The notes: generated by a model not told the origin, from the sequence alone. Positions 2,858-62,785 are shown, counted from the stretch's first letter. The stretch: 64,000 nt of DNA from an uncultured Planctomycetales bacterium (GCA_964489065.1 CAZAXH010000003.1:255104-319103); one strand, 5' to 3'. Numbers and translations are program-made.

Positions 2858-2975
2858 TATTTATCCACCTTCTGCTTAGGGGATGTCCGCGCGTATGTCA
2901 AGAAGGCAGGCCATTGCGCGAAGCGAATTTTAATCCCATCGGGCAGGCCCCGTCTCTTGAAGGCGGGGATGAGAG
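2858..2975 (+). repeat. R1 intergenic repeat, copy a (shorter and more divergent)
   Basis: Contains GGATGTCCGCGCGTATGTcAAGAAG and GCGCGAAGCGaATT, and ends in the CCCCG...CGGGG hairpin. These cores are shared with six other copies. Confidence 0.5.
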
Positions 2976-3049
2976 TAAAATCCATCGGCTCGGCCGCTGA
3001 ACAAGCAAACGTGAAAACGTAAGAGCCCCGCCTGTGAAGGCACGGGGCT

Positions 3050-3739
3050 TTATTTTTTCTTTTGGGCGCGGACTCCGTAATTGATCATGACGGGAAACAG
3101 GGTGTCGCCGTACCGGTCAAAGAAGGGGAGGACCTGTTTGGCCAGGGGAATCTGCCAGGGGAAGAGGTGACATCCGGAAACACGGATGTTCTCGAACCCT
3201 GTCTTTTTGAGCCATTTTTGGGTCGTGGCCGGCCACGTCCATGTTTCAAGGCCGCTGAATTTTCGGATTTTTAGCCGCTGGGCGGTCCAGAGAACAGGGT
3301 ACCAGAGTTTGTTGGGAGTCGTGATAACCAGCCAGCCTTGTTTTTTAAGCACGCGCTGCATTTCAGTCAGGGCGGCGTAAGGCTGCGGCGTGTGTTCGAT
3401 GCATTCGGAACTGACAACGAGATCAAATGTCCCCTCTCCGGCTGGAAGGCGGACACAATCCCCCGCCAGGCCGGAACATTGCATCCGCCGCGCCACATCG
3501 TCCGTGAGTTTCGGCGAGATATCGTTGACCGTGAGGTTCCCGGTGAGCTGTCTGAGCTTTTGGGAAATTTTGCCGGTGCCGCAGCCGATTTCCAGCACCG
3601 CCGGGTTATCGGGCAAAGAAACGGAGCCGAGTAGGTGGTCAAAAATCAGGCGGATCCGGCGTTCCACGTCATAGGCGGACATAAAACGGTCAAAATCATC
3701 ACCCAGATTTTCAAAGTAATAAGCGCCGTTATTTTTCAT
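3050..3739 (-). CDS. Class I SAM-dependent methyltransferase
   Basis: Motif I LEIGCGTGKIS, then an acidic loop and motif-II-like DLVVSSECIEH. It lies 12 nt downstream of the GT2 gene and is co-oriented with it. Confidence 0.75.
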   Translation of the reverse strand: MKNNGAYYFENLGDDFDRFMSAYDVERRIRLIFDHLLGSVSLPDNPAVLEIGCGTGKISQKLRQLTGNLTVNDISPKLTDDVARRMQCSGLAGDCVRLPAGEGTFDLVVSSECIEHTPQPYAALTEMQRVLKKQGWLVITTPNKLWYPVLWTAQRLKIRKFSGLETWTWPATTQKWLKKTGFENIRVSGCHLFPWQIPLAKQVLPFFDRYGDTLFPVMINYGVRAQKKK

Positions 3740-4721: not shown

Positions 4722-4856
4722 TTTATTCGCCTTCGCAGAAGACCGCGAGCAGTCCTGTGGCCGTCTCCTTCAGAGATGTTCGCACGGATGTTAAGACATC
4801 CGGTCATTCCGCGAAGCGGATTGTTCATGGGAAACACACCCCTGGGCGCGGCCCCT
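4722..4856 (+). repeat. R1 intergenic repeat, copy b
   Basis: TTATTCGCCTTCGCAGAAGACC...GATGTTCGCACGGATGTTAAGA...CATTCCGCGAAGCGGATTGTTCATGGG...GGGCGCGG. Confidence 0.6.
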
Positions 4857-5048
4857 ATGAAAATTGAATTTATTATAGCAGAGAATTCCGGAAAATAAAC
4901 CGCTCTTTGTGAACTTAAGGGAAGTGATTTTTTCCCCTCCGCGGTATTTTTCCTTAAATCAATGTATTCTTATTAAAATAAGCTATAATAAAAAAGTTAA
5001 AATGGTTTTTGAGGATAAATGTTTTTTCCCGGAGGAGGGTATGCCGTT

Positions 5049-6350
5049 ATGATTTCAGCGTGTGCCCGCTGCCGTTTTAGGAAAACAGCTTTTTGGGGAC
5101 TGCCTGTTCTGGCGGCCTGGCTGCTTTTGTCCGGGACGGCCGGCGCTTTAACCGATGAAGGGGCGTTATTGTTTGAACAGTCCCGGAAGAGCGTTTTTCA
5201 GATTCGGGTTATTGATCAGGCGACGGATGAAAAATCGACGACCGGTTCCGGTTTTTATATCAGCCCGGCCGGGCACATGGTCACAAATTACCATGTTGTT
5301 GCGGATTATGTCATGAAGCCAGCGCAGTATCAAATTAAATCCCTGAACGAAGACGGTTCTTTCGGAACTCTGGAACTTATTTGTTTTGATGTTGTCCATG
5401 ATTTGGCCATTCTTTTGGATGAAAGGGGTTCGGATTCTTACTTGGAGCTTGGCCATTCCCAGTTGGCAAAGGGGGAACGTATTTTCAGCATGGGCAACCC
5501 TTATGATTTGGGAATGTCGATTATCGAAGGCACGTTTAACGGGCTCATGGAAAAGGCCATGTACCGTAAAGTCCTGTTCTCGGCCTCTCTTAATCCGGGG
5601 ATGAGCGGCGGGCCGGCTTTAAACCGTCAGGGAGAGGTGGTCGGTGTCAATGTTTCAACGATGGGTAACGATGTCAGCTTCCTGGTTCCGGTTGAGTTTC
5701 TCAAAGACCTTTACCGGGAGGCCGCTGGGCAAACGGGAGGTCCGCAGGGCAGCCTGGAAGAAATGATCGAACAGCAGGTGTTGGCGCAGCAGAACCGGTT
5801 TATTGATCATCTCCTGTCGTCTTCCTGGGATCATGTGGGGATGGGGGATATTTTAATCCCCGGGGAGATCGCCGCTCCCATTAAATGCTGGAGCAAGACG
5901 GAAGATAAGGAGAAGGAACTGGTGGTCAAGGTCCGCACGATGTGCAGCAGCGAGGACACCATTTACATCAATGAGCAGATGAACACCGCGGATTATTCAT
6001 ACTGGTTTTTGCAGCATATCAACAGGGGGATGAACGCGTTTCGTTTTTACAACAGCCTTGTTGAAGATTACGCGGGAGCCTTTTCTTTTCGGAACGAAGA
6101 GGATGAGTTTTTTACGAAGTTCCAATGCCGGGATGATTTTGTGGAGATCGCCGGCCGTCGTTGGAAAGCGGCGCTGTGCGTGCGGCAGTATAAACGTTTT
6201 CGGAAGCTTTTTGACCTGAATTTTATTTTAAGCACGGTGGACGAATTCGACCGCGGGCTTATGGGCGCGTTTGCGGTCAAGGGCGTCAGCCGGGAGGCGG
6301 GGCAGAATCTGATCCGGAAATTTATGGAGGAAATACGGTGGCAAAAATAG
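5049..6350 (+). CDS. Secreted trypsin-like serine protease (S1 family) with an uncharacterised ~230-aa C-terminal domain
   Basis: Signal peptide; catalytic triad contexts TNYHVV (His), HDLAIL (Asp) and GMSGGPAL (Ser); no recognisable PDZ domain. A GGAGGAGGG RBS lies 8 nt upstream of the ATG at 5049, so I prefer that start over the ORF-track start at 5019. Confidence 0.8.
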   Translation: MISACARCRFRKTAFWGLPVLAAWLLLSGTAGALTDEGALLFEQSRKSVFQIRVIDQATDEKSTTGSGFYISPAGHMVTNYHVVADYVMKPAQYQIKSLNEDGSFGTLELICFDVVHDLAILLDERGSDSYLELGHSQLAKGERIFSMGNPYDLGMSIIEGTFNGLMEKAMYRKVLFSASLNPGMSGGPALNRQGEVVGVNVSTMGNDVSFLVPVEFLKDLYREAAGQTGGPQGSLEEMIEQQVLAQQNRFIDHLLSSSWDHVGMGDILIPGEIAAPIKCWSKTEDKEKELVVKVRTMCSSEDTIYINEQMNTADYSYWFLQHINRGMNAFRFYNSLVEDYAGAFSFRNEEDEFFTKFQCRDDFVEIAGRRWKAALCVRQYKRFRKLFDLNFILSTVDEFDRGLMGAFAVKGVSREAGQNLIRKFMEEIRWQK

Positions 6351-7306
6351 TGCTTGAGATCGCCTTGGAATCCCGTTCCCACAAGGAGGTGAGGGTTTTT
6401 GATTCGGGCAGGGTCACAGTCGGACGCGGGTTTGACAATGACGTTATTTTAGCCGATCCGTATGTGTCGCCCCGGCACATGGTGGTGGAGAGGATCGGGG
6501 AGTCTGTGCGGATCCGGGATACGGGGTCTGAGAACGGCACCTGTGTCGCCGGAGTTAAACACCGGGGAGAAGACGTTGAAATCCCTTCTGGCGCGGAAAT
6601 CGTGATCGGGAAAACGCGCCTCCGCGTTTATCATGAAACGCATCCGGTGGCCCCGGCCCGTATGCTTGTTGAAAATAATGCTTTTTTAAAATTGACCGGG
6701 CATCCGGTTTTTGCCTGGGCGCTTGTGCTGGCGGTGGCCGGGCTGGCCCTGCTGGAAGCCCATTGGGGCACCACCAGAAACGAAAACCTGCTGAAACTGC
6801 TTCCGGCACCTATCGGAGTTCTGTCCTCGGTCTTGGTTTGGGCGGGGTTCTGGACCTTTATCGGCCGGCTTTTGCGCCACAAAATGTATTTTTGGGAACA
6901 TGTTTCCATTTGCTGCCTTTGGTTTCTGGCCAGTGAACTTATGGACAATGTTATTCATTACACCGCCTTTTACGGGAACAGCAAAACGGCCGGCCTTATT
7001 TTGGGATATACCGTCAACAGTGGGCTTTTTATCGCGGTTTTGTTCGCGACGCTGACATTTGCGGCTAATATGACGTCTAGAAAAAAAATAATTTTTGCCG
7101 GCGTGTTTACCGGCGTCATCGTGCTTTCTTCCGCGGGGCTGTGGTTGTCCATCTCGGAGTATTATGCGTGGGAGCCGCCGTACGACACCGTGTTGAAACC
7201 TCCGGTTTTTGGCGTGCGGCCGGGCTGCTCTATTTCCGATTTTGTCGGACGCGCGGACCGGCTGTTTGAGTTTAAGGCCTTTCAAAAAGGCAACAGGGCA
7301 GGATGA
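6338..7306 (+). CDS. FHA-domain membrane protein (N-terminal FHA plus a C-terminal multi-TM region)
   Basis: FHA signature VTVGRGxDNDVIL...SPRHMVV...IRDTGSENGTCV followed by four or more hydrophobic helices. GTG start with a GGAGG RBS; overlaps the protease gene by 13 nt. Confidence 0.75.
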   Translation: MAKIVLEIALESRSHKEVRVFDSGRVTVGRGFDNDVILADPYVSPRHMVVERIGESVRIRDTGSENGTCVAGVKHRGEDVEIPSGAEIVIGKTRLRVYHETHPVAPARMLVENNAFLKLTGHPVFAWALVLAVAGLALLEAHWGTTRNENLLKLLPAPIGVLSSVLVWAGFWTFIGRLLRHKMYFWEHVSICCLWFLASELMDNVIHYTAFYGNSKTAGLILGYTVNSGLFIAVLFATLTFAANMTSRKKIIFAGVFTGVIVLSSAGLWLSISEYYAWEPPYDTVLKPPVFGVRPGCSISDFVGRADRLFEFKAFQKGNRAG

Positions 7307-7307
7307 G

Positions 7308-7470
7308 GATTATCTCCGACTTCGCCGGAAGATCCCGGGCATGCCTGTGGAGGAACGCGGGAGGTTTATCAGGTCTTCTGTTCCGGGGATGTCCGCGTGT
7401 ATATTAAGACGTAAGAGCGTTCCGCGAAGCGGATTATTCGCAGGGGCCACGCCCATGGGCGTGAGGCTTC
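7308..7470 (+). repeat. R1 intergenic repeat, copy c
   Basis: GCATGCCTGTGGAGGAACGCGGGAGGTTTATCAGGTCTTCTG...GGATGTCCGCGTGTATATTAAGA...GTTCCGCGAAGCGGATTATTCG...CACGCCCATGGGCGTG. Confidence 0.6.
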
Positions 7471-7496
7471 ATTACAATACAAGAAGGGGGGTTAAA

Positions 7497-7922
7497 ATGA
7501 CGCAACAAGTTAAATGGACGCTGGGGATCGTGGCTGTTTTCGTGGGGCTTGTTTTGTCTCTTGTGTTGTTCCGTTCTTGGTACAATACAAAACATTCTGT
7601 TACCGCGGATGAGGAGGTTATGGCTGTGGTCAAGGAGCTTAACGCCCAATTGCCGAAGATGCTGGACGATGATACGCGGCTAGAACGGATTGAGGGGGGG
7701 CCGGGCAAGAAATTGGTTTATATTTGCACCATGGTGAATTATTCGTCCCAGGATATCAGCAAGGAGCTGTTCGACAAGGAGGTGGCTCCTTACGTTAAAC
7801 AGGGCCTCCAGACGGACAGGACCCTGTATCCTTTGTTCAGAAAAGGGATCACGATTGTTTACCGTTACTTTGGGAGTGACGGGGTTTATATTTCGGAGGT
7901 CGTCAAGCGGCCCCATGAATAA
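7497..7922 (+). CDS. Hypothetical membrane-anchored protein
   Basis: ORF with an N-terminal TM helix (WTLGIVAVFVGLVLSLVLF). The ORF-track start at 7209 lies inside repeat R1-c, so I take the first post-repeat ATG (MTQQ) as the start. Confidence 0.5.
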   Translation: MTQQVKWTLGIVAVFVGLVLSLVLFRSWYNTKHSVTADEEVMAVVKELNAQLPKMLDDDTRLERIEGGPGKKLVYICTMVNYSSQDISKELFDKEVAPYVKQGLQTDRTLYPLFRKGITIVYRYFGSDGVYISEVVKRPHE

Positions 7923-14385: not shown

Positions 14386-14577
14386 GGTATGTCCCTGTTT
14401 GGCGGAGATGATTTTAAAAATTTTTTTGTCCGATATTTTCAGGAATATAATAAATGCTATTATACAACAGGGAAATTTTAGGGGATATAAAGGATTTATA
14501 TTTATTCTGCCGCATCATGAATTTATTGTGTTTTTGTTTCGTTCATTAAGAATTCATAATATAATGAAAATTAATAT

Positions 14578-14752
14578 TTTATCCAATGAGCATTTAATTT
14601 ACACGACCCAAGGGAGTGTAAACGAGAAATGCGAATTGATCCTTCAGCGAGAGAGTCCAAGCGAACGAGTTGAAGGATATTGGTTAATACCCCGCAGCTT
14701 GCTGCGGTTCATTGAGCCCAGAGCTTGCTCTGGGGTTCATGCCTTTGATTAT
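14578..14752 (+). repeat. R2 structured element, full copy A, in the 5' leader of the giant gene
   Basis: Three hairpins: TTTACAC-N11-GTGTAAA; CCTTCA-N24-TGAAGG; CCGCAGC-TTG-GCTGCGG. Then CCAGAGCTTGCTCTGG and GTTCATGCCTTTGATT. Ends 40 nt before the ATG at 14793. Confidence 0.6.
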
Positions 14753-14792
14753 AAATGTTTTACTATCCCCTTTTAAAAAGAGAGGTCATTCT

Positions 14793-17700
14793 ATGAATAA
14801 GCATTCCTGCCGTATAACAATGATATTTTTGTGTGGGGCGATTTTGACTTTGACTGTGGCCACGGGAGCCGGGGCTAAAGATAACGGAATGAGTTTGACC
14901 GAAAAGGTAGAAAACCTGCTTCGGAAATATGAAACCTTGCGCGATGAAAATCAGGAGATTAAAAATACTCTTGAAGAGGCGGAGGGGCAGGTGGAATTGT
15001 ATAAGGGGAAGTTTATAGAATCGGAAGCCCGGGGGGGGATTCTTCAGAAACAGTTGGAGACGCGTACGCAGGAACTAAAAGAGGCCCAGGCGGCGGTCAA
15101 AGATAAGGAAGGCACCGTGATTCAGGAGGATGAGGCACGGGCGGAACTGGAAGAAACGATCGTTGAATTAAAAGAGGAGAGCAGGCGGCGGGAAGAAACG
15201 ATCCGGGCACTCGAGAAAAAACTCAGAGACACGGAAGCCTCTCAGGAATCCCTGGCTGAGAAGACGGCCTTTGAAAGAGAGGCGGCCGTTCTTAAACGGG
15301 AGAACGAAAGTCTAAAAGAGGATATCCGGAGCCTTGAACAGAAGTTGCAGCAGGCAGACACGGCTTTGAATGACAATATCTCTGCCGCTCAGTTGGCCTT
15401 GAAAAAAGAAATAAAAGAATTGAACGGGGAACTGCAGTTGAAAGGCGCGTTTATCCGCGACGGCGAATTCCAAATAGAATCCTTGAAGAATGAAAACGGC
15501 CGCTTGGTGAAAGAGGCGGAGGATTTGCAGGCGCGTATTCAGGAGCTCACAGCCCGTCACGACAAAAAAGAAGACTCTGTGGCCAGAAAAATAGAGCTTG
15601 CCCGGGAACCGTTACAGAAGAAGATCAATGATTTGCAGGATCAGTTAGAGGCCCTGCAGGCGGAGGTTCCGCGAAAGATAGAGGAGGGCCGCCGGCCTTT
15701 ATTGAGTGAGGTGGAAGAGCTTAGGGACGAGAATGAGGCTTTGAAGAAGTCGATGGAAGAGAAGGTGAGCAGAGTGGAAGAGCCTTTGCAGAGAGAAAAC
15801 GAAGAATTGAAGGCACGGCTGCGGGAGGGGGAAGAAGCCCTTGCCCAGGAAAGCCGCCGGACGGAGCAGTTAGTCGAGGAAAAAATCGGTGCGATAAAAA
15901 AACAGCTTGAGGGGACGGAAGCGTCTTTGGAGGAGAAAGACAGGGAAATTCTTTCTTTGAAAGCGGAACTGGAGAAGGGCGGACAACTCGCTGCTGCGGC
16001 GGAAGGAGAGAAGCAGAAAATAATCAAGGATGCGAAGGACCAGGAAAGAAATTTGCGGCAGCAGGTTGCGGCGCTGGAGAAAGACTTGAAAGCTGCTGAG
16101 AAAAAAGAATCCGCGAAGTCTGTTCGTGAAAAGGAAAATTTGAGGAAAGAGAACGCGGACCTGCAGGCAAGAATTCAGTCGTTAGAAAGTTCCATCCCTG
16201 AAAAAGTAGGGCAGGCCAAGAAACCGCTGATGGAGAGAATTGACAGTTTGCTGGCTGATATGGAGCAGGCGCAAAAGAAAATGGACGCCGAGGTTCAGCA
16301 GGTCCGGGAAGCTTTGGAGGAGAAAGTGTCTGCCCTGGAAGAAGATTTGAGACAGGAACGTGAGAGAAAGAACGACAGCACGGCTGCTCAGGAAGACACG
16401 TTACGTAAGAAAATCGCAGAGCTGGAACAGCAATTGAAAGAGGCGGATACGGTCGCTGCTGAGAAAGTGGCCGCATCCCAAGCCCTGTGGCAGGATAAGA
16501 TTGCCGCTTTGGAGCAGCAGCTGGCGGATCAGAAAGCGGCGTTGCCGGGACAGATCAATCAGGCCAAGAGAGTTGCGGATGAAGAAGTGAAATTGCTGAA
16601 AGCCCAACTGAGAGAGAAAGATTTGACTCTTTCGGCCCAGGAAGAGTCTCTCAAGAAAAATCATGAGGTCAAGTTGCAGAGATGGCAGAAGGATTTGAAA
16701 TCGGCCCAGGATAAAGTCAAAAACCAGGAAGCTGAAATCCGCGGGAAAGAAACGGCTTTGGAGCAAGCCACTCGGGAACTGGAAGCCGTTCGAGCCAGGA
16801 GCGAATCGTATCAGAAGGACATGGCTGCACTCCGTGATCAGTTGAAAAACAGGGAGCAGCAGACAGATCAGATTGTTCAAGAGCGGACGGCGAACTATCA
16901 GGCACGGATAGCCGAGCTGGAAGGGGAATTGAAGAAGATCCGGGAAGACAGCGAGGCCAGATTAGCGGGTGTGATGGATAAAAACGAACAGGAAATGGAA
17001 CGGCTGCGGGAACAGATGAAAGCCAAGGAAGACACCATATCGGAGCGGATTGCCCGGGCCAAACAGCCGTTGGAAGAAGAGATCCGGGGGCTGAACAAAG
17101 AGTTGCGGGCTAAGAAGAATGCCGGTCAAGAGGATAGTCAGGCCGCCCAGAAGCTGTTGGAAGACAGAATTAAAGAACTGGAAGAGCAACTGCAGAAAAC
17201 CGAGAATGCCTTGAATCAACAAGTTGAGGAGGCGAAGGAACCTCTTATAGAAAAAATTCACGCGTTGGAAGAAGCGATAAAAAACGCCGGGGCCGCGGCT
17301 TCGGCGAAGGTGGAAAGCGAGAAAGCGCCGCTCGTGGAACAAATCCGGGTGTTGGAGGAAAGACTTTCGGAAAAGAATGCGCTTTGGCCGGAAAAGATGG
17401 AAGCAGAAAAAGCCCCCTTGCGGGAGAGGATACAGGCCCTGGAAAATCGCCTTAAGGAAAAAGACATTGAGCTTAAAGTAAAGGTCGAGGAGGCGCAGTC
17501 CTCTTTAAATACAGAAATTGTAAAGTTGAAAGAAGATCTGAACGCCACGCGGAAAGAGCATGAGGCCCGGTTGAAAGAAGAGCAGCGCGCCCAGAAAGAG
17601 GTCGTTGAACAGATCAGGAAGGATTTCGAAGATTATAAAAATTCTGAACCTGACAGGATCGCCGCAGCCAAACAGCCTTTAGAGGCGAAGGTGGGAGAGT

Positions 17701-20700
17701 TGCAGAAAGATTTGAAAGAAGCGAAGAGCCGGAAAGATGAAACACGGAAGGCCACCCAGAAACCTCTGGAAGATAAGATCAAGGAACTGGAAGCCAAGTT
17801 AAAGGATCAGGAAGCCGGGTGGGCCGCGAAGGGCGAGGAGGCAAAAACTCCGCTTGTCGAAAAAATTCAGTCTCTCGAGGACGCTTTGAAAGAGCAGGCG
17901 TCTTCCGTAGAAGCCAGGATTGAAGAAGTAAAAGCCCCGCTGCTTGAACAGGTTCGGGCTTTGGAGCAAAGACTCGCGGAAAAGGAATCCCTTTGGCCGC
18001 GGAAAGAGGATGAAGTCAAGGCTCCTTTGATGGAAGAGATTCAAACCCTTAAGCAGCGTCTTGAAGAAAAGAATTCCGAAACAGACCTCAGAATTGCCGA
18101 GGCACAGTCAGCGTTGAAAGAAAACATAGCGGTTTTGAAAGAAGATTTGCGCGCGGCCCGGGCTGATTCGGAAGCCAGGATTAAGGCCGAACAGGAAATC
18201 AGCCGCCAAGAGGCGGAAAAGATACAGAAGGAATTCAAGGAATACAAAGATACAGAAGCGGAACGTATGGCTCAAGTCAGGCAGCCGTTGGAGAAGAAGA
18301 TTGGAGAGTTGCAGAAAGATTTGAAAGAAGCGAAGAGCCGGAAGGATGAGGCCCGAAAAATCGTTCAGAAACCGCTGGAAGATAAGATTAAGGAGCTTGA
18401 GGCCAGGTTAAAGGATCAGGAAACCGAGTGGGCCGCGAAGGGCGAGGAGGCGCGGGCTCCGCTTGTTGAAAAAATTCAGACGCTTGAGGACGCATTGAAA
18501 GAGCAAGAAGCCGCCATAGAATCCCGGATCGAAGAGGCGAAGGCGCCTTTGCTTGAGCAGTTGCAGGTTTTTGAGAGGAGTTTAACGGAGAAGGAATCCG
18601 GGCTTACCGCTCAAATTGAGGCCGCGCAAGCGCCCTTGAAAGAACAGATTAAAAGTCTCGAGGAAGGGTTGCGGCAAAAGGAGGCAGACGCGGCCTCGAC
18701 GGAAGAGACGGCCCGTTTGGCCCGGGAAGAAGACATCCGTTTGGTTCGGGAAGAAGCGGATGAGCGCCTGAAAGCGGAACAGGAGGCCAGTAAACTCGAG
18801 TTTGAAAAGCTTCAGAAGGAATTTGAAGATTATAAGAACAGTGTTGCAGACATAATGGCCCAGGACAAGCACCCGCTGGAAGAGGCCATAGCGACTTTGC
18901 AGAATGATTTAAAAGAATCTCAGGTCAGGAAAGAAGAAGATATTAAACTCGCTAAAAAACCTTTGGAAGACCGGATTAAAGAACTTGAAAGGGATTTCCG
19001 CAAAAGGGGCGCGGAAATTCAGGAAAAGGTTAAGGAAGCGCAGCGTCCTTTGGAAGAGAATATCGCCCTCCTCAAAAAGGACCTGGAAAATAAAGACAAG
19101 GAGTGGGAGGCCAAGATTGAGGAAGCAAAGTTTCCGTTGGAGGTCAAAGTCCGGGCTTTGGTGCAGAAGTTGGATGAGCGGGATGCGGCGATTTCTCGCG
19201 TGATAAAAAAAGCGAAGGCCCCTCTAGAGAAGCAGGTTGAAACGTTAACAGCGCAGATGGAAGACACGAAGAAGACGGTGGCGCAGCAGGTGGCTCAGGC
19301 TCAGGCGCCGTTGCTTGAAAAGAATGAGGCGTTGAAGAAGCAACTTGAGGAGATGGCCGCCGCAGTTCCCGGCCAAATTGCTGAAGCCAGCAAACCTCTG
19401 CAGGAGAAGATCACTGTTCTTCAAGGCGAATTGGCTGCGGCAAAAGACGCTGTTTCCGGGAAAATCGAAGAAATAAAAGCTCCCTTGCAGGAAAGAATTA
19501 ATTATTTGCTTGAAAAAATGAAAACGGAAGAGGCTCTTTATAAAACTAGCATGAAGGCCGATCAGGAAAAGTTTCAGGAAGAAAAGAATAAGTGGGGAGT
19601 TCAACTGCAAGATAGGGAAGGCATGATTCAGGAGAAAGACCGGGAGATCAAACAGCTGGCGAAAGACAAGGAGGCCATGCTGAGGGAGCTTGAAATTGCC
19701 GGAGAGAAAAGTGCGAAGCTGAATGAGCTGGTGGAAAAAGCCCGTGGGGAGAGCCAGTCCATGCAATCCGATCTTCCTCAGAAAATCGCGGAGGCCCAGA
19801 AGCCGTTGCAGGAGAAAATCGGCGCGCTGGAAGAGGAAAAACGGGCGATGGAGGCTTCTTTCGCGGAAAAAAGCGCTAAGGTCCAATCCGGACTGGAAGC
19901 CCAGATTCAGCAGTTGAAAGATGCGATAAAAGCGAAAGACGCCGGTCTTCCGGCCCTGATGGAAGAGGCCAAGAAGCCGTTACAGGCGGAAATAAACAGA
20001 TTGCAGGACGAGTTAAAAAACACCCATTCTTCTTTGCCGGAGGAAATTGTCAAGGCGAAGCGCCCGCTGGAAGAGAAGGTGGCGTCTCTGGAACAGTCTT
20101 TGGTGGAAAAGGACCGGGGGCTTCAGAGGTATTTGAAGGAAAAAGATGATCTTAATAAAGAGCTTGTAGCCGCATTAAAAGAGAAGACGACTTTAAATGA
20201 ACGTGTGTTAACCCTTGAGAAAGACCTGACGGCTGTGCAGTCTCAATCCCAGAGCGGGGAAGAGCAAGTTCGGAAAGAGTATGCGCAGAAAATAGCGGAC
20301 TTGCAGGCGGCTTTGGCGAAAGCCCAGCAGGCGCTTTCCGAGGCCGTGGCTTCGGCCAAACAGCCTTTCGTTGATAAGCTTGCCGGCCTGGAAGAGGCCC
20401 TGAAGACAAAAGACGAGGAGCTGTCCCGCCGGGTCGCCGAAGCCCGGGAGCCTCTCGAGGCCAAGATCGCCTCTTTGGAGCAGCAATTGAAGGAGCAGGA
20501 GACGGCCGGCTCACAGAATGTTGAACAGGCCCGGGCGCCGCTTTTGGCCCGGGTTGAAGAATTGACGAACGCTTTAAAAGCCAAGGAGTCCTCGTCCCTT
20601 CAACAGGTCCGGGAAGCCAAAATCCCCCTCGAGGAAGAAATCCGGAAGCTGAAAGCGGAACTGAAGCAAAATAATCAGTCATTGCCGAAACAGCTGCAGG

Positions 20701-21752
20701 ATGTTCAGAAGCCGTTGGAGCAGGAAATCGCGGCTTTAAAAAAGCAGATACAAGATAAAGATAAAGAATTCTCCCAGCAGGACGCTGCGTTGAGGAAATC
20801 CGACGCCAGGCTTCAGCAGACATTAAATGAATTGGCGGTCGTTCAGAAAACGGTTTTGGACCTTACCACGCAAAAGACCCAGGTTGAACAGCAGCTTTTG
20901 GAAAAGAGCAAATTCGTGCCTCAGCTAGTGGAGGACGCCAAGCGTCCTCTGGTTGATGAAATCAACCGTCTGAAAGAGGAGAACAAAGCGAAGGAGAACA
21001 GCTTGCCTCAGAAAGTCGCTGAGGCAAGCCGTCCGTTGGAAGAAAAAATCCTTACCCTGGAAAACGATCTGCGGCAGGCACAGTCATCGGTAAAGACACA
21101 AATCGAAGAAGCCCGCAAGCCCCTGGAGCAAAAAGTTGCCGCTTTGGAGAAACAAAATAAAGAAACCGAGGGCACGGTTAAAAGTAAACTGGCTGAGGCG
21201 AAGAAACCGCTGGAGTCCAGGATTAAAGCCTTGGAGGAAGAACTTAAGTCCGCCCAGAAACAGTCAGCCCAGCAGGTGGCGCAGGAAAAAAGCGCCGCCG
21301 ATAAGAAGGTTGCCGATTTGCAGCAACAGCTCGGTGCGCTTCAAAAGATGACGAAGGAAAAGGAGACCGCTATTCAGGATATGGAAAAAGAGCTTGACCG
21401 TATTACGATCAGCCTGTCCGCCGTTCAGCAGGAGAATATTTTCTTGAACAATGAGTTGGCGGAAGCCAAGAAATCTCTTCAAACGATTCAAGGTGATCTG
21501 GAGAATAAATATTCCAGAAAACAGGGCGAACTGGAAGATAAAGTCAGTTTTCTTATGGGCGTTATTGACCAAAAAGACGCCCTTTTGCAGGAACAGGTTA
21601 ATCTGGTGGCGGAGAAAGAAAAGCAGATTTCCGCTCTCACCCGGGAGGCTGATGACCTGGCGAAAGATTACTTTGCAATTCTGGATAAGAATGTATCTTT
21701 AAGCGAACGGCTTGAGAAGCTTGAGAAACAACAGGCGGCTCCGGCTAGGTAA
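14793..21752 (+). CDS. Giant secreted repeat protein of ~2,320 aa, built from apolipoprotein-like proline-punctuated amphipathic helices
   Basis: AGAGAGG RBS; signal peptide (ILTLTVATGAGA); about 60 units of ~29 aa of the form [AE]K.PL.E.I..LE..LKE; no Cys beyond the signal peptide. I prefer the ATG at 14793 over the ORF-track start at 14712, whose extra N-terminus translates the R2 repeat. Confidence 0.85.
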   Translation: MNKHSCRITMIFLCGAILTLTVATGAGAKDNGMSLTEKVENLLRKYETLRDENQEIKNTLEEAEGQVELYKGKFIESEARGGILQKQLETRTQELKEAQAAVKDKEGTVIQEDEARAELEETIVELKEESRRREETIRALEKKLRDTEASQESLAEKTAFEREAAVLKRENESLKEDIRSLEQKLQQADTALNDNISAAQLALKKEIKELNGELQLKGAFIRDGEFQIESLKNENGRLVKEAEDLQARIQELTARHDKKEDSVARKIELAREPLQKKINDLQDQLEALQAEVPRKIEEGRRPLLSEVEELRDENEALKKSMEEKVSRVEEPLQRENEELKARLREGEEALAQESRRTEQLVEEKIGAIKKQLEGTEASLEEKDREILSLKAELEKGGQLAAAAEGEKQKIIKDAKDQERNLRQQVAALEKDLKAAEKKESAKSVREKENLRKENADLQARIQSLESSIPEKVGQAKKPLMERIDSLLADMEQAQKKMDAEVQQVREALEEKVSALEEDLRQERERKNDSTAAQEDTLRKKIAELEQQLKEADTVAAEKVAASQALWQDKIAALEQQLADQKAALPGQINQAKRVADEEVKLLKAQLREKDLTLSAQEESLKKNHEVKLQRWQKDLKSAQDKVKNQEAEIRGKETALEQATRELEAVRARSESYQKDMAALRDQLKNREQQTDQIVQERTANYQARIAELEGELKKIREDSEARLAGVMDKNEQEMERLREQMKAKEDTISERIARAKQPLEEEIRGLNKELRAKKNAGQEDSQAAQKLLEDRIKELEEQLQKTENALNQQVEEAKEPLIEKIHALEEAIKNAGAAASAKVESEKAPLVEQIRVLEERLSEKNALWPEKMEAEKAPLRERIQALENRLKEKDIELKVKVEEAQSSLNTEIVKLKEDLNATRKEHEARLKEEQRAQKEVVEQIRKDFEDYKNSEPDRIAAAKQPLEAKVGELQKDLKEAKSRKDETRKATQKPLEDKIKELEAKLKDQEAGWAAKGEEAKTPLVEKIQSLEDALKEQASSVEARIEEVKAPLLEQVRALEQRLAEKESLWPRKEDEVKAPLMEEIQTLKQRLEEKNSETDLRIAEAQSALKENIAVLKEDLRAARADSEARIKAEQEISRQEAEKIQKEFKEYKDTEAERMAQVRQPLEKKIGELQKDLKEAKSRKDEARKIVQKPLEDKIKELEARLKDQETEWAAKGEEARAPLVEKIQTLEDALKEQEAAIESRIEEAKAPLLEQLQVFERSLTEKESGLTAQIEAAQAPLKEQIKSLEEGLRQKEADAASTEETARLAREEDIRLVREEADERLKAEQEASKLEFEKLQKEFEDYKNSVADIMAQDKHPLEEAIATLQNDLKESQVRKEEDIKLAKKPLEDRIKELERDFRKRGAEIQEKVKEAQRPLEENIALLKKDLENKDKEWEAKIEEAKFPLEVKVRALVQKLDERDAAISRVIKKAKAPLEKQVETLTAQMEDTKKTVAQQVAQAQAPLLEKNEALKKQLEEMAAAVPGQIAEASKPLQEKITVLQGELAAAKDAVSGKIEEIKAPLQERINYLLEKMKTEEALYKTSMKADQEKFQEEKNKWGVQLQDREGMIQEKDREIKQLAKDKEAMLRELEIAGEKSAKLNELVEKARGESQSMQSDLPQKIAEAQKPLQEKIGALEEEKRAMEASFAEKSAKVQSGLEAQIQQLKDAIKAKDAGLPALMEEAKKPLQAEINRLQDELKNTHSSLPEEIVKAKRPLEEKVASLEQSLVEKDRGLQRYLKEKDDLNKELVAALKEKTTLNERVLTLEKDLTAVQSQSQSGEEQVRKEYAQKIADLQAALAKAQQALSEAVASAKQPFVDKLAGLEEALKTKDEELSRRVAEAREPLEAKIASLEQQLKEQETAGSQNVEQARAPLLARVEELTNALKAKESSSLQQVREAKIPLEEEIRKLKAELKQNNQSLPKQLQDVQKPLEQEIAALKKQIQDKDKEFSQQDAALRKSDARLQQTLNELAVVQKTVLDLTTQKTQVEQQLLEKSKFVPQLVEDAKRPLVDEINRLKEENKAKENSLPQKVAEASRPLEEKILTLENDLRQAQSSVKTQIEEARKPLEQKVAALEKQNKETEGTVKSKLAEAKKPLESRIKALEEELKSAQKQSAQQVAQEKSAADKKVADLQQQLGALQKMTKEKETAIQDMEKELDRITISLSAVQQENIFLNNELAEAKKSLQTIQGDLENKYSRKQGELEDKVSFLMGVIDQKDALLQEQVNLVAEKEKQISALTREADDLAKDYFAILDKNVSLSERLEKLEKQQAAPAR

Positions 21753-22992: not shown

Positions 22993-23130
22993 TTTTATCT
23001 GCCTTCGCCGGAGACCGATGATGAACGCGAGAGGATGGGCCCTTCTGCTCCGGGATGTCCGCACGTATGTTAAGAAGTCATATCCTTCCGCGAAGGGAAC
23101 AGGTAGCATAGGCACCGCGCTTATGGCACG
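22993..23130 (+). repeat. R1 intergenic repeat, copy d
   Basis: CTGCCTTCGCCGGAGACC...CGGGATGTCCGCACGTATGTTAAGAAG...CTTCCGCGAAGGGAAC...CCGCGCTTATGGCACGG. Confidence 0.55.
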
Positions 23131-23215
23131 GCGTTCCATCAGAATGCCTCAGCGAAACGATCTTTGGGCTTTCACTTGTTTCTCAATATGATTTACGTTA
23201 CAATAAGCATCCGAA

Positions 23216-24328: not shown

Positions 24329-24487
24329 GTTATTCGCCTTCGCAGAAGGCCGCGGGCATGCCTGTGGAGGAAGGCGAGAGGTTCATAAAGTTTTCTGTTT
24401 CTGGATGCTCACCCGCATGTTAAGATGCCGGGGCATTCCGCGAAACGACTTGTTAGTAGGGAGCCACGCTCATCGGCGTGGGCTTCC
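24329..24487 (+). repeat. R1 intergenic repeat, copy e
   Basis: TTATTCGCCTTCGCAGAAGGCCGCGGGCATGCCTGTGGAGGAAGGCGAGAGGTTCATAAAG...CACCCGCATGTTAAGATG...CATTCCGCGAAACGACTTGTTAG...CCACGCTCATCGGCGTGG. Confidence 0.6.
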
Positions 24488-24503
24488 TTTAAAGGAGGGA
24501 GAC

Positions 24504-24920
24504 GTGAACAAAAGAGCGGTTTTAAGTCTTTTTCTGTTAACTTGCTGGGGCTGTGCAACAACGGGGCAGCAACCCTATAGCCAGATTAACCTGGCCTCCC
24601 GCCGGTTTTTGAGCCTCCGGCAGATTTACGTCGGCATGACCCGTCAGGAAGTTGCGGGCGTGTTGGGGAACCAGGTGATCGTCGGGTACGAAATCCACGA
24701 TGAAGAGACCGGTCAGTATACGCCTATGACCGTTAAGAACCCGTATCGTCAGGAGCAGGTTGCCGAGGGCGACAAGGTCTATGAAATTGATTATTATTTC
24801 GTCGGGATCAATGCGGCGGACGGCCAGATTACCGATGATGAGCTAGCCCCGCTGGTTTTTGTGAAGGATCAATTGATGGGGTACGGCTGGGAGTATTTAA
24901 ATAAAAAGGTGAAGAAATAG
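24504..24920 (+). CDS. SmpA/OmlA (BamE-like) lipoprotein
   Basis: GTG start 4 nt after an AAAGGAGGGA RBS. The lipobox-like LLTCWGC plus IYVGMTRQEVAGVLG resembles the BamE/SmpA_OmlA signature. The ORF-track start at 24405 lies inside repeat R1-e. Confidence 0.55.
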   Translation: MNKRAVLSLFLLTCWGCATTGQQPYSQINLASRRFLSLRQIYVGMTRQEVAGVLGNQVIVGYEIHDEETGQYTPMTVKNPYRQEQVAEGDKVYEIDYYFVGINAADGQITDDELAPLVFVKDQLMGYGWEYLNKKVKK

Positions 24921-26800: not shown

Positions 26801-26963
26801 TTTATCCGCCTTCGCAGAAGACCACGGGACTTCTCGCGGATGAATGTGAGAGGTTTAACAAGGTCTTTTCTGCTTCGGGGATGTCCGCCCGCATGTTAAG
26901 AAGCCAGAAAACGTCGCAAAGCGAATTGTTAACAAGCGCCGCGCCTGCGGGCAAGGGGCTCGC
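26801..26963 (+). repeat. R1 intergenic repeat, copy f
   Basis: TTTATCCGCCTTCGCAGAAGACC...GAGAGGTTTAACAAGGTCTTTTCTGCTTCGGGGATGTCCGCCCGCATGTTAAGAAG...GTCGCAAAGCGAATTGTTAAC. Confidence 0.6.
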
Positions 26964-27064
26964 TAAGATTAAATCTATTGCAAATTATATATTTATGACA
27001 TAGAATGGAGCGGTTAATCGGATTTCCGCTGGGACAGAGTTTAAAAAAGAAAGGAAAGATTTTT

Positions 27065-56466: not shown

Positions 56467-57120
56467 ATGGCCGTCCGGGACACAGATGAAAATATGCCCG
56501 TGATCTCTCCCTCGAAAGTTTCGAGCTTCTCCACACTGGCCCGCACTTTGTCTCATGATTTTTATGCCTGGCGGTGGTTCTCTTGTCTTTTGGCGCAGCC
56601 GCTGGTCAAGGCCGCTCTGGTTTCAGAAAAAGATATGCGGGCGCAATACCGGGTGCTCGTCCGCATTGAAAAGCAGGAACTTCTGTCTGCGGCGCTTTTC
56701 TTGTTGGCCTTGGCCGGGATGCTGACCCCTTACCGCATGTTTTCCGCCGCCGTCCTGGCCTTGGGATGGTGGCTGTCTTTTTATTTCACGGGCCAAAAGA
56801 AGGCGGTTGTTTTGAAGCTCAGCACATGCTGGCTCCAAAGGGAGTTCCTTCCGGAGGATTTTGAACAAAAGACGTTGTTCCAGATTTCTGAAATCATAAG
56901 CAAGAAATATCAAATCCCATCTCTGGTGGATTCGGTTTATTTCAGCGACTCGGTTTTTAGAATATTGTATCTGGCCTGGTTCCTGTTTCTGCTGGTCCCT
57001 TACCCCATCCCGAATTTTTTTCTATTCGTCGGCTTTTCCGTCCTGGGTGTTGTTTGGATCCGGAATATGTTGAATAGCCGCAGGATTTATCAAAACCACA
57101 AAATTATAGACGTGATTTAA
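56467..57120 (+). CDS. Hypothetical membrane protein
   Basis: 217-aa ORF with 4-5 hydrophobic helices. No motif. Confidence 0.45.
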   Translation: MAVRDTDENMPVISPSKVSSFSTLARTLSHDFYAWRWFSCLLAQPLVKAALVSEKDMRAQYRVLVRIEKQELLSAALFLLALAGMLTPYRMFSAAVLALGWWLSFYFTGQKKAVVLKLSTCWLQREFLPEDFEQKTLFQISEIISKKYQIPSLVDSVYFSDSVFRILYLAWFLFLLVPYPIPNFFLFVGFSVLGVVWIRNMLNSRRIYQNHKIIDVI

Positions 57121-57129
57121 GCCGGGCTG

Positions 57130-59058
57130 TTAAATTCCAAGCAGCAGGGCCGAGATTTTCCATGCCGCCACGAGAACGATGTTTACAAATAACCAGCCGT
57201 TGGGGGATGTCGTCAGGGAGAACACCGTGGATATGAAGGGAAATGAAATTTTTAATTTTTGATAAGACATGTGCCGCGGCTGAAACACGAGCCAGAAAGT
57301 TGTGTAAGACCGCCAATTGATGCTCATCAACCGCTCCTGCTCGAGCATGTTCTGGTACAGACGGGAGCCCGGCAAAGGGGTCAGCAGGGACATGATGGTG
57401 AAAAAAGGGAAAATAGAAAAACAGCATTTCCAATAATCCCACAAGTCTTCAAAATGGTCGGCATCGAAGCCCCATATAAAATTTCCCCGGATTTTAATGC
57501 CCAATTTTTTGATTTTTTTCGTATAGCCGATATACCGGTCCGCCAAAGCGAGCTTGCCTCCAGAATTTCTTTCGGCGGAATGGGCCCGTATTTCATAACC
57601 GATGGTGAGCACGGCGCATCCGCTTTCTTTGGCTAACCGCAGGACATCGTCGTTGGCGGCGATATCAATGCTGCTGCTGGCGCACCACTTTATTTTTAAT
57701 GGCGTTAAGGCCCGGAACAGTTCCGCCGCGTAGCCGGGGTCGGAATAGATATTGTTGTCGATGAAGTTGAAGATTTTATAACGCGGGTGGAGTTTCTGGA
57801 TTAACTCGACAATCTCCCCGACGGGTTTGTGCCGCAGCCGGCCTTCGCACAAGGTGTGAGCCGAACAAAAATCGCAATGGAATTTGCACCCGTGGGTCGT
57901 TTCCAGGTAATCTTTCACTTCTTCATCCGGGGCGGAGAGCAGGGAGTGATGAATTTTTTTGTGTTGCTCTTCTGTGGCCTGCGCGTGATAAACGGGCTTA
58001 AGGGCCCGGGCGTCATAATCTTTGAGGATTTCTTCCCAGCACCCCTCGGCTTCTCCCACGACAACGCTGTCACAGAACTCCAGAGCTTCCTGAGGGAGGC
58101 AGGCGACATGGGGGCCTCCCATAATGACCGAGGCCCCGTGTTTCCGGAAGCTTTTGGCTATTTTATAAGCTTCGATGCTGTTGCAGGTATGACAGGTGAT
58201 GGCCACAAGTACATCAGGGCGGTAGTATCGTTTTCGCCAGAAGACCCGGGAAAAGACTCTTACGCGGTATTCCGGCGGGGTGAGGGCTTTTAAGACCGTA
58301 AAAACAGAAGGGTGGTAGCGGTAACCTAAAAAGGACAGGCTTGTCAGGACGGATCCGCCGCCCATGGGGTTGATGAGGAAAATTTCTTTCTGTGATTTGA
58401 AATGCTCCTGAATCCCTGGCGTGGATTTTAAAAGGATTTTGACAATAAAGATGAATTGCAGCAGGTGCAGGTATGTTGTCAAAAACAGGAATCCCAGGAA
58501 GGCACCCTGGGCTTTCCCGATCAGCATTTGGGAGACCGAGAAAGCGGCGGATTGAAGGACTGTCAGGATCAAAAGCAGCCCGCCTCCGGCCGCGGCCAGT
58601 CTGGTGGGCCAGAGTTTGAATCGGAAGGAGGCGTATTTTCGTCGGATTATTAACATGGCCATGAGAAGTAAGACCGGGATATCGAGCCATAATCCGACCA
58701 ACAGCAGGGGGGCCTTATGCGTTATCGTATATATTAAAAAGAGAACGGTTATTTTTATGGCCTGCAGAACCAAATAAGAGGGCCAGAACATCCGTATGTT
58801 GCGCCCAAAGCGGCCCAGGGTTACGCAGTATTCTTCTCCGGAAGACAATTCCACCAGGGCTCCGTAAATTCCGCTATAAATAAGGAGTTTGAAAAGATAT
58901 ATGGGCGCGGCCAGCAGGATTCCATGGCTTCCAAGGCGGAGGGATTGTGTGTAAATTCCCCAAATATTTTCCTCGCATAAATAGATAAGGATGGCCGAGG
59001 AGAGGTAGGTGTTCAGAATGTGAAAGGAGGATTGAAGGACAGGGCGTGTTTTATTCAT
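57130..59058 (-). CDS. Membrane-anchored cobalamin-binding radical SAM enzyme
   Basis: About 230-aa N-terminal polytopic domain, then a B12-binding-like Rossmann segment (VLVAITCHTCNS...GASVIMGGPHV) and the radical SAM cluster motif CKFHCDFC (Cx3Cx2C). Confidence 0.8.
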   Translation of the reverse strand: MNKTRPVLQSSFHILNTYLSSAILIYLCEENIWGIYTQSLRLGSHGILLAAPIYLFKLLIYSGIYGALVELSSGEEYCVTLGRFGRNIRMFWPSYLVLQAIKITVLFLIYTITHKAPLLLVGLWLDIPVLLLMAMLIIRRKYASFRFKLWPTRLAAAGGGLLLILTVLQSAAFSVSQMLIGKAQGAFLGFLFLTTYLHLLQFIFIVKILLKSTPGIQEHFKSQKEIFLINPMGGGSVLTSLSFLGYRYHPSVFTVLKALTPPEYRVRVFSRVFWRKRYYRPDVLVAITCHTCNSIEAYKIAKSFRKHGASVIMGGPHVACLPQEALEFCDSVVVGEAEGCWEEILKDYDARALKPVYHAQATEEQHKKIHHSLLSAPDEEVKDYLETTHGCKFHCDFCSAHTLCEGRLRHKPVGEIVELIQKLHPRYKIFNFIDNNIYSDPGYAAELFRALTPLKIKWCASSSIDIAANDDVLRLAKESGCAVLTIGYEIRAHSAERNSGGKLALADRYIGYTKKIKKLGIKIRGNFIWGFDADHFEDLWDYWKCCFSIFPFFTIMSLLTPLPGSRLYQNMLEQERLMSINWRSYTTFWLVFQPRHMSYQKLKISFPFISTVFSLTTSPNGWLFVNIVLVAAWKISALLLGI

Positions 59059-59283: not shown

Positions 59284-59448
59284 TTTTATCCGTCTTGCAG
59301 AAGACCTCGGGCCTGCCCGTGGATGAATGCGAGAGGTTAACAATGCCTTGCCTTCTGCTTCGGGGCTGTCCGCTTGTGTGTTAAGACGCCAGATGATTCC
59401 GCGAAGCGGATTGTTCATGGGCCCCGCGCTCATGGGCGCGGGGTTTCC
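59284..59448 (+). repeat. R1 intergenic repeat, copy g
   Basis: TTTATCCGTCTTGCAGAAGACC...GAGAGGTTAACAATGCCTTGCCTTCTGCTTCGGGGCTGTCCGCTTGTGTGTTAAGACG...GATTCCGCGAAGCGGATTGTTCATGGG...CCCGCGCTCATGGGCGCGGG. Confidence 0.6.
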
Positions 59449-59465
59449 TAAGACAGGGGGATGGT

Positions 59466-59819
59466 ATGGATCATGCCGGGCAGATACTTCGGGATATTTT
59501 TGTAGCCGTTGTGGTGGCCGGGTTTATCTTGTGGCGGTTGGTCAGGCCGTATCTTATCTGTAAGAGTGTTTTGGCAGGGCGGACCGGCCTGATAGGCGCG
59601 AAATATGTCCTGTTCGAGGGCGTGCTGTTTACTGTTGCCGGCGCGTTCTTTTTGATGCGGTCTTTGCGGCCCCTGTCTAACGTGACCGCTGCCGTCGTGT
59701 GCGGGGCTCTTCTCCTGGCCGGCCTTTGGTATATTTTTAACGCGGTCAGGGTGCTGGCCGTCCAGAATAGAGGCCGGCCTTGGGAGAACCCGCGAAAGGG
59801 CGGCCAGCTTACGGAATAA
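59466..59819 (+). CDS. Hypothetical small membrane protein
   Basis: 117 aa, 3 TM helices, AGGGGGA RBS. Immediately after R1-g. Confidence 0.45.
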   Translation: MDHAGQILRDIFVAVVVAGFILWRLVRPYLICKSVLAGRTGLIGAKYVLFEGVLFTVAGAFFLMRSLRPLSNVTAAVVCGALLLAGLWYIFNAVRVLAVQNRGRPWENPRKGGQLTE

Positions 59820-62337: not shown

Positions 62338-62406
62338 AGGCCCTGCATCTTGGAATTCACGTTTTTGTTTTTCATTCAATCCTGCGTTTTTAGCGCAGGA
62401 TTTTTT

Positions 62407-62580
62407 ATTCAATGAGCATTTAGTTTACACGACCCAAGGGAGTGTAAACTAGAAATGCGAATTGATCCTGAGCGCGAGTGAGCCCAAGCGAACGAGTTGC
62501 AGGATGTTGGTTTCATACCCTGCAGTTTCCTGCGTTTCATTGAGTCCAGAGCTTTCTCTGGGGTTTATACCTTTGATTTT
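62407..62580 (+). repeat. R2 structured element, full copy B
   Basis: About 85% identical to R2-A. The same three hairpins are present, with the middle stem changed in a compensatory way (CCTGAG.../...TTGCAGG versus CCTTCA/TGAAGG). Confidence 0.6.
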
Positions 62581-62785
62581 AGCTTTCCTTATTTATAAAT
62601 GTGTGCCGGGAGGTGTTTCTTACCCGGGCCGGTTATCGTGTAACTTTTTGCAGACAAGTCCGTTTATATTTATGACAGCCCTGGAATCCGGCCTGCGGCG
62701 GCTGAGGAAAAAGCGCTGATGAAATATTCAGCGGAATTTTGATAAAACAGGCCTCTAACGATAGGGAAACGCAAAGGAGGCGGTT

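Follow-up and report, generated by a model that had tools for sequence, protein, structure and literature searches.

Introduction

IS608 inserts directly 3' of the tetranucleotide TTAC, and this target lies 19 nt 5' of the left hairpin of the element. The right cleavage site is found 10 nt 3' of the right hairpin, and a guide tetranucleotide, AAAG, located 5' of the hairpin, pairs with the cleavage site (PMC3201880). Both IS608 and ISDra2 insert into the lagging-strand template (PMC6006769). PATEs (palindrome-associated transposable elements), the gene-less derivatives of such IS200/IS605 elements, were first defined in Haloquadratum walsbyi; they carry near-terminal palindromes but no inverted terminal repeats, produce no target duplication and are not long enough for a transposase gene. 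Their left subterminal distance exceeds the right one, and they have a targeting sequence of 4-5 nt (PMC3119063). PATEs also adjoin ISGst elements in Geobacillus (bioRxiv 10.1101/2023.03.14.532601).

Here, a family of short intergenic repeats, R1, is described from a 64-kb stretch of bacterial DNA, which was analysed over its whole length and is referred to as the window. The original prediction, made from the sequence of the window, was that R1 is a transcribed, structured RNA element. The comparisons presented below suggest that R1 is instead, and probably, a small, lineage-specific, non-autonomous family that is PATE-like and has an IS200/IS605-type architecture without genes. On this reading, R1 adds an example from a bacterial candidate phylum to the gene-less, hairpin-ended IS200/IS605-type elements.

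The R1 family in the window and in a sister genome

Repeat finding, MAFFT alignment and nhmmer searches recovered exactly seven copies of R1 in the window, all on the + strand, in agreement with the number, orientation and positions originally predicted. Pairwise identity among the paralogs ranges from 62 to 77% (median 68%), and a degenerate 42-nt core pattern matches six of the seven copies, compared to 0.00 matches expected from 100 shuffles. The cores common to the family are TTATCCGCCTTCGCAGAAGACC, GAGAGGTTAACAAGG, GGGGATGTCCGC..ATGTTAAGA and TTCCGCGAAGCGGATTGTT, the last together with a GC hairpin. Copies are about 130-190 nt long (132-189 nt measured), with an intact length of about 160 nt, and the interior of about 95 nt contains blocks that are conserved among paralogs. 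The boundaries listed below were refined from empty sites in related genomes; the leading TTAT is flank and not part of the element.

2865..3053, + strand: copy a, 189 nt; internal deletion of approximately positions 9-75, left palindrome lost
4727..4858, + strand: copy b, 132 nt; about 28 nt of the central segment missing
7314..7472, + strand: copy c, 159 nt; left palindrome at 7333-7350, right palindrome at 7448-7463
22999..23139, + strand: copy d, 141 nt; a 12-nt deletion took the left palindrome; upstream of a conserved deaminase-gene promoter
24334..24488, + strand: copy e, 155 nt; between two operon genes, ending 9 nt before the next Shine-Dalgarno sequence
26806..26964, + strand: copy f, 159 nt; upstream of the conserved TTGCAA-17-TAGAAT promoter of a DsbA-like gene
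59290..59449, + strand: copy g, 160 nt, the best preserved; left palindrome at 59305-59322, right palindrome at 59422-59443

All copies lie outside real genes, as had been proposed. Two predicted ORFs overlap copies only as upstream extensions: ORF 7209-7922 overlaps copy c, with the real gene start at about 7497, and ORF 24405-24920 overlaps copy e, with the real gene start at about 24507. No reading frame is retained across the R1 copies.

Exact-pattern scans of the R1 core were performed on 185,579 species genomes and on JGI/ENA metagenomes. Outside the source organism, the core was found in one other organism only, the Candidatus Omnitrophota MAG JAGOJP01 from a sludge digester, whose population was also recovered in an activated-sludge assembly (UPTA01). 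Part of contig 44635 in the Logan assembly of run SRR15237810 is identical to the window, which shares 91-96% identity with JAGOJP01, referred to here as the sister genome. Orthologs of all seven window copies are present in the sister genome, together with four additional full copies (h, i, j and k) and two fragments identified by nhmmer, giving a total of 11 full copies and two fragments for the window and sister genome combined (nhmmer).

The known copies are clustered. Seven of the 11 full copies lie within this 64-kb region, one 57-kb sister contig holds copies h and j as well as a fragment, and copy k and the other fragment are 5 kb apart (contigs NODE-314 and NODE-415). This clustering could reflect either local hopping or incomplete sampling.

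Empty sites in related genomes

Syntenic loci were collected from six more distant Omnitrophota genomes (L017-L024 and L049-L052, including two 3.3-Mb contigs), whose proteins share 59-81% amino-acid identity with the proteins flanking R1 in the window. R1 was not found in these syntenic loci by HMM or nhmmer searches. The orthologous intergenic regions of the relatives are shorter by the length of R1 and can be aligned across the gap, and precise empty sites are present in relatives at six of the seven R1 positions. The best-defined junctions are as follows, with a slash marking the point of insertion.

Site a: empty (L023), GGAATATTTAT/TTTTTCTTTTGGGCGCGGAC; filled, GAAATATTTAT (189 nt) TTTTTCTTTTGGGCGCGGAC; right flank identical
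Site b: empty (L023), ..GATTTTAAA/GAAAGATCGAATTC; filled, ..AATTTTTAT (element) GAAAATTGAATTT
Site c: empty (L023), GGAATAT/ and 24 nt to the start codon; filled, GGATTAT (159 nt) and 24 nt
Site e: empty (L021, L017 and L052), GGCGGGATTAT/TTAAAGGAGGGAGACGTGAA; filled, GCGGGTTAT (155 nt) TTAAAGGAGGGAGACGTGAA
Site g: empty, GTGTTTTAT/TAGG (L049), GTGTTTTAT/GGCG (L050) and GGATTAT/ATCATGG (L051); filled, GTGTTTTAT (160 nt) AAGACAGG

Sites b and f can also be mapped, although less sharply than the others, and are compatible with insertion in the absence of duplication. TTAT directly precedes 10 of the 11 full copies. At the empty junctions it occurs once at site a, at site e (3/3 genomes) and at site g (3/3 genomes), and the corresponding sequence at site c is ATAT. 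Comparison of filled with empty sites revealed no target duplication at a, c, e or g, where the right flanks are either identical or equal in length. Because TTAT was already present in the empty sites, it is the pre-existing target, and R1 begins immediately after it. These results demonstrate that the R1 copies are lineage-specific insertions directly 3' of a TTAT that was already in place. The insertions also provide dated markers, as two close genomes carry them and six relatives do not.

The junctions bear on the possibility that R1 is a cut-and-paste MITE of the IS630/Tc1-mariner kind, which would duplicate a TA target and leave TA on both flanks, with boundaries offset by one base from those given above. 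When the copies are read as TA-element-TA, nine of the 11 have TA on both sides; left flanks are T-rich and right flanks A-rich, and a two-base TA duplication fits the junctions at a, b, f and g. The same model fails at e and c. At site e, ATTATTTAAAGG is present in all three empty sites, which exceeds the prediction of the TA model by four bases; the model with no duplication is exact. At site c, if no duplication is assumed, the junction lies 24 nt from the start codon whether the site is filled or empty, and under the TA model the two distances differ by 3.

The ends of R1 point in the same direction. A pairing search between the two termini of copies c, f and g revealed no terminal inverted repeats, and when the first 10 nt of the consensus are compared with the last 10 nt in reverse complement, only 3 of 10 positions match. 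Double-strand transposition also carries no intrinsic strand bias, yet 12 of 13 R1 copies and fragments are co-oriented with GC skew. Insertion by a TA-duplicating MITE is therefore unlikely, and the original prediction, which had already argued against a MITE with inverted repeats and target duplications, was right on this point. R1 does resemble MITEs such as Correia/NEMIS, RUP and ERIC in its size (about 130-190 nt), its intergenic location and its co-transcription with neighbouring genes. However, MITEs of this type end in inverted repeats and usually produce a TA duplication, whereas the ends of R1 are not inverted repeats and its best-resolved junctions are without duplication.

Anatomy of the element

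The features of copy b illustrate the arrangement of the family.

4723..4726, + strand: target TTAT of copy b; abuts the left end, flank, not duplicated
4743..4760, + strand: left subterminal palindrome, CCGCGAGCAGTCCTGTGG (family consensus CCACGGGCATGCCCGTGG), with AAGA just 5'
4808..4820, + strand: internal conserved mini-hairpin, TCCGC-GAA-GCGGA
4834..4851, + strand: right subterminal palindrome, degenerate (family consensus CCACGCCCATGGGCGTGG), then about 7 nt ending in T

Across the family, the left palindrome consensus starts at position 17, approximately 16 nt from the left end, and about 8 nt, with YCNT at their end, follow the right palindrome consensus. The palindromes, CCACGGGCATGCCCGTGG and CCACGCCCATGGGCGTGG, agree at 14 of 18 positions, with two base pairs flipped between them. 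In an alignment of 16 sequences, the left helix is 84.5% paired and the right helix 64% paired. The left-end CCGCCTTCGC and the central GCTTCGGGG are both complementary to the mini-hairpin.

This arrangement was compared to that of IS608 and ISDra2. R1, like these elements, appears 3' of a fixed tetranucleotide (TTAT for R1 and TTAC for IS608) with no duplication, and its orientation bias fits insertion into the lagging-strand template. The subterminal hairpins of R1 and IS608 lie at asymmetric distances from the ends (16 + 8 nt in R1 and 19 + 10 nt in IS608), and an A-rich tetranucleotide is located 5' of the left hairpin in each (AAGA in R1 and AAAG in IS608). The four nucleotides at this position in the R1 family are AA(G/A)A. 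If the pairing rule of IS608 applies, AAGA would form two Watson-Crick pairs and one wobble pair with TTAT. At the right end there is no convincing guide/cleavage pairing. This comparison varies with the position assigned to the foot of the hairpin.

R1 also differs from IS608 and ISDra2 in several respects. It has no tnpA or tnpB, and its two hairpins differ by the two flipped base pairs described above. Compared to IS608, the right-end cleavage/guide pairing is not recognised, and there is an extra complementarity between the left end and an internal hairpin, in that the left-end CCGCCTTCGC is complementary to the internal GCGAAGCGG hairpin. We know of no IS608 counterpart to this CCGCCTTCGC/GCGAAGCGG complementarity.

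R1 shows all of the listed features of PATEs, having no terminal inverted repeats, similar subterminal palindromes, no duplication and a length of 132-189 nt. As in PATEs, the elements are too short to encode a protein, the left subterminal distance is the longer one, a targeting sequence of 4-5 nt is found at the left end, and the copies are heterogeneous, with core deletions. The R1 family differs in that it is found in an uncultured bacterial phylum, Omnitrophota, and in that no IS605-type transposon with the same ends is known, none having turned up in the window, the related loci or the pattern scans. It is also small (about 11-13 copies) and apparently inactive, with seven of 11 full copies in a single 64-kb region.

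Search for a mobilising enzyme

Neither the Y1_Tnp nor the OrfB family was detected by Pfam among the 60 window ORFs or among the genes called in the related loci, and no tnpA or tnpB was found in the window, in approximately 150 kb of the sister genome or in the pattern scans. The same was true of a longer element with R1 ends, searched for in the window, in approximately 150 kb of the sister genome and in the pattern scans. The genome and metagenome scans were performed with the R1 interior core, so that an autonomous element sharing only the ends would escape them. Examination of the two fragments (L015 12132-12191 and L012 2396-2477) for an autonomous partner revealed only ordinary genes alongside. 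A scan of viral contigs with the R1 left end returned 23 matches, close to the number estimated by chance, none of which extended beyond the pattern by nhmmer, and BLAST searches of plasmids and phages with R1 gave no match.

The lack of a transposase is expected of a non-autonomous derivative, and the enzyme is read here from the anatomy of the elements alone. A Y1 HUH transposase (TnpA), encoded elsewhere or now lost, would have recognised the two hairpins on one DNA strand and moved R1 as single-stranded DNA into the lagging-strand template. Such a mechanism would leave nearly all copies pointing the same way along the G-rich strand.

Orientation of R1 copies relative to replication

GC skew is positive throughout the window (+0.09 to +0.19). 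The leading strand was assigned from GC skew and gene orientation, and the positive skew indicates that the + strand has the leading-strand sequence and hence is the lagging-strand template. In the sister-genome contigs, the orientation of the copies follows the sign of the local GC skew. Altogether, 12 of the 13 R1 copies and fragments have their top strand on the G-rich strand (binomial p = 0.003), which confirms that the uniform orientation noted originally is not due to chance. The exception is copy j, which is opposed to the GC skew and lies antisense between two co-directional genes; its orientation, opposite to both the skew and the neighbouring genes, counts against the PATE reading.

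Insertion into the lagging-strand template, as known for IS608 and ISDra2, provides a mechanical reason for the orientation bias that does not involve RNA function. In tandem-gene contexts, seven of eight R1 copies are co-oriented with the genes (p = 0.07). Genes are also mostly on the G-rich strand, so selection for a sense orientation is inseparable from strand-specific transposition in these data. Taken with the other results, the bias is better explained by strand-specific transposition of single-stranded DNA than by RNA function. A uniform repeat orientation can accordingly be the footprint of single-strand transposition and not of RNA function.

Rates of change and decay

Divergence between the window and the sister genome was measured for several classes of sites. 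Codon positions 1, 2 and 3 differ by 3.8%, 2.8% and 11.2%, respectively, four-fold degenerate sites by 12.1% and other intergenic DNA by 8.5%. R1 elements b-g differ by 10.9%, with several indels in addition. The R1 copies thus diverge at a neutral rate. Losses of palindromes or of the central segment are found in several copies: a and d are without the left palindrome, b is without the centre, and in the sister-genome ortholog of copy f, 10 nt of the right palindrome are gone. Since the two carrier genomes diverged, the family appears to have been inactive, and it is probably extinct.

Columns of the R1 alignment that are conserved among paralogs change less between orthologs than the remaining columns (8.7% compared to 14-17%; Fisher p = 0.0016). 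This difference could be due to weak constraint, to gene conversion between copies or to uneven mutability.

Copies and their neighbouring genes

Copies e, h and k are located between operon genes; together with copy g, they fall within transcription units, each directly before a Shine-Dalgarno sequence. In the case of copy g, a conserved TATAAT box precedes the element and the start codon of gene 59466-59819 follows it, which places the element in the 5' UTR of that gene. Whatever effects R1 has at present on neighbouring genes are incidental, for example a hairpin in a 5' UTR or between operon genes, a new stop codon or a new C-terminal tail. Copies in 5' UTRs, between operon genes or supplying stop codons could have small local effects on expression.

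Copy a contains an extra segment of about 107 nt (2936-3042) with a hairpin, AGCCCCG...CGGGGCT. The segment is absent from the sister genome and stands in place of the right palindrome of the sister-genome ortholog. The last bases of copy a (3050-3053; TTAT in the window and TCAT in the sister genome) form the stop codon (TAA or TGA) of a convergent methyltransferase gene, 3050-3739 on the - strand. At the empty site, the methyltransferase gene used the TTA of the target TTTAT as its stop, and the insertion of copy a therefore left the length of the protein unchanged.

Copy i (L016 7861-7918 in the sister genome) is read into by an upstream ORF of 545 aa (6281-7918), which continues for 58 nt within the element and terminates at the TAA in GGTTAACAA. 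Copy i thus supplies the last 19 codons of this ORF.

Sigma-70-like promoters near several copies, at 26978-27006, approximately 23166-23200 and approximately 4975-5005, and likewise the TATAAT box preceding 59290, show almost no base changes between relatives that share 67-81% amino-acid identity. Examples include TTGCAA-17-TAGAAT and TTGTTT-17-TACAAT. The surrounding intergenic DNA is not conserved.

Tests for a structured or functional RNA

The original prediction held that R1 copies are transcribed, structured RNAs, such as small RNAs, REP/BIME-like stabilisers of mRNA or terminators, which would be found in one orientation since they act in sense. The proposed stems do exist. Across 16 sequences, the three proposed R1 helices are 77% paired, as compared to 34-47% with slid partners. 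The predominance of copies co-oriented with genes in tandem contexts, the location of copies e, g, h and k inside transcription units, just ahead of a Shine-Dalgarno sequence, and the slower evolution of paralog-conserved columns would also be consistent with a functional RNA.

However, the covariation that was predicted for the 3' hairpin was not confirmed. Measured covariation was 0.100 compared to a shuffle mean of 0.120, with 492 of 500 shuffles reaching or exceeding the observed value, so that the 16-sequence alignment contains no covariation above shuffled controls. Alternation between A-U and G-C occurs at one pair only, and that pair is unpaired in 8 of the 16 rows. Helix 12-21/124-132 is 82.5% paired with no covariation. 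The predicted long-range pairing of GAAGACC with GGTCTTC was not confirmed as a general feature either: it forms in copies c, f and h and is partial in j and k, but b and d have lost it by deletion and it is missing from e, g and i.

Folding calculations gave a similar result. RNAalifold found almost no R1 consensus structure (-2.5 kcal/mol), and MFE z-scores were modest and similar for the two strands (approximately -1.7 for the + strand and -1.5 for the - strand), with no strand-specific signal. When base-pair probabilities were averaged, the right palindrome was the only helix consistent across paralogs, and it was seen on both strands. Rfam gave no match to R1, either for the whole window at the gathering threshold or for four sub-regions at E <= 10, where only noise was returned.

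The genomic context of the copies also argues against this explanation. R1 is absent at the orthologous sites of all six distant relatives, its overall divergence is neutral, and its hairpins have been lost in several copies. Conserved sigma-70-like promoters of the next gene are located downstream of copies b, d and f, and these copies are therefore not 5' leaders. A lenient terminator scan flagged two of the seven 3' hairpins (a and e), and the T-run 3' of copy a is pre-existing flank and not part of the element. Lineage-specific insertion, a neutral rate and the lack of both covariation and an Rfam match make a transcribed, functional RNA quite unlikely, and neither a terminator nor an mRNA-stability function is borne out. 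This result keeps the repeat from being annotated as a new small RNA or riboswitch in Omnitrophota genomes.

Several more specific candidates were considered and rejected. A known RNA family was rejected given the lack of an Rfam match. A riboswitch or 5' leader was rejected because promoters lie 3' of b, d and f and the downstream genes are unrelated; the genes downstream of R1 encode a protease, a 141-aa protein, a deaminase, BamE-like and DsbA-like proteins and hypothetical proteins. Several reading frames in R1 look open and conserved, but the frame that joins the 5' and 3' halves varies between copies and the substitutions lack a consistent three-base periodicity, and a small ORF or coding remnant was rejected. 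A sigma-54 or ECF promoter inside R1 was dropped, since the matches seen by eye were partial and not conserved. An intrinsic terminator module was also set aside, with only a and e flagged and the T-run of a derived from the flank.

Guide RNA and REP-like alternatives

A variation on the PATE reading is that the copies are guide-RNA genes, that is, omega-RNA-bearing PATEs in which the right flank serves as guide and TTAT as adjacent motif for a TnpB-like nuclease encoded elsewhere, or that they are RNA modules recruited in sense orientation within operons. The slower interior blocks and the sense orientation in transcription units would be compatible with either. We consider the chance that one of these applies to be small.

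The narrower proposal that R1 copies still encode an omega RNA, used in trans by a TnpB-type nuclease with TTAT as adjacent motif and the right flank as guide, can be weighed against more of the data. PATEs related to IS200/IS605 often encode omega RNAs (bioRxiv 10.1101/2023.03.14.532601). In R1, the interior of approximately 95 nt contains blocks that are retained even though the paralogs share only 62-77% identity, and these blocks diverge more slowly between orthologs. However, no tnpB was found, and there is neither a consensus fold, nor covariation, nor an Rfam match. The overall rate of change is neutral, and deletions hit different parts of the interior in copies a, b and d. The proposal is accordingly very unlikely.

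That R1 represents REP/REPIN elements moved by a RAYT (TnpA-REP) transposase is hardly credible, even though the copies are intergenic and carry hairpins and the RAYT family is related to the TnpA of IS200/IS605 (PMC6006769, PMC2817692): REPs are palindromes of about 20-40 nt, usually of high copy number and often alternating as BIMEs or REPINs, whereas the R1 unit, of about 160 nt, has ends that differ from each other and a long interior that is not palindromic, its approximately 11-13 copies almost all point the same way, and no RAYT gene was detected in the window, beside the fragments or in the related loci. R1 shares with REP, BIME and REPIN elements that it is an intergenic hairpin repeat, probably processed in single-stranded form by a Y1 HUH enzyme, which can end up inside transcripts; it differs in its longer, asymmetric unit, its low copy number, its single orientation and its defined TTAT target. 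The REP/BIME-like label was nonetheless the closest of the earlier guesses, as REPs are moved by relatives of the IS200/IS605 transposase; the function in mRNA stability attached to it is not supported.

Other features of the window

A second repeat family was observed in the window, with all copies on the + strand:

14574-14780, + strand: second repeat family
62400-62600, + strand: second repeat family
63905-64000, + strand: second repeat family, cut by the end of the window

The conserved core is about 130 nt (GCGAATTGATCCT...CCGCAGCTTGCTGCGG...CCAGAGCTTGCTCTGG), and one stem seems to change on both sides (ATCCTTCA/TGAAGGAT, CCTG../..CAGG and CCTCC/GGAGG). One copy has a fold z-score of -2.6, the remaining two have values near 0, and Rfam gave no match. 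This family lies upstream of a 2346-aa coiled-coil ORF and of an ARPP-1 gene. The 2346-aa ORF (14712-21752) has many internal repeats of coiled-coil appearance; its orthologs have no Pfam family on record, and it is syntenic across the relatives.

A segment of about 1.8 kb (56752-58579) has no megablast match in the sister contigs, where the alignments jump from 56752 to 58579. The segment covers most of a B12-binding radical SAM gene (57130-59058, - strand), and the full gene is present in the more distant relatives.
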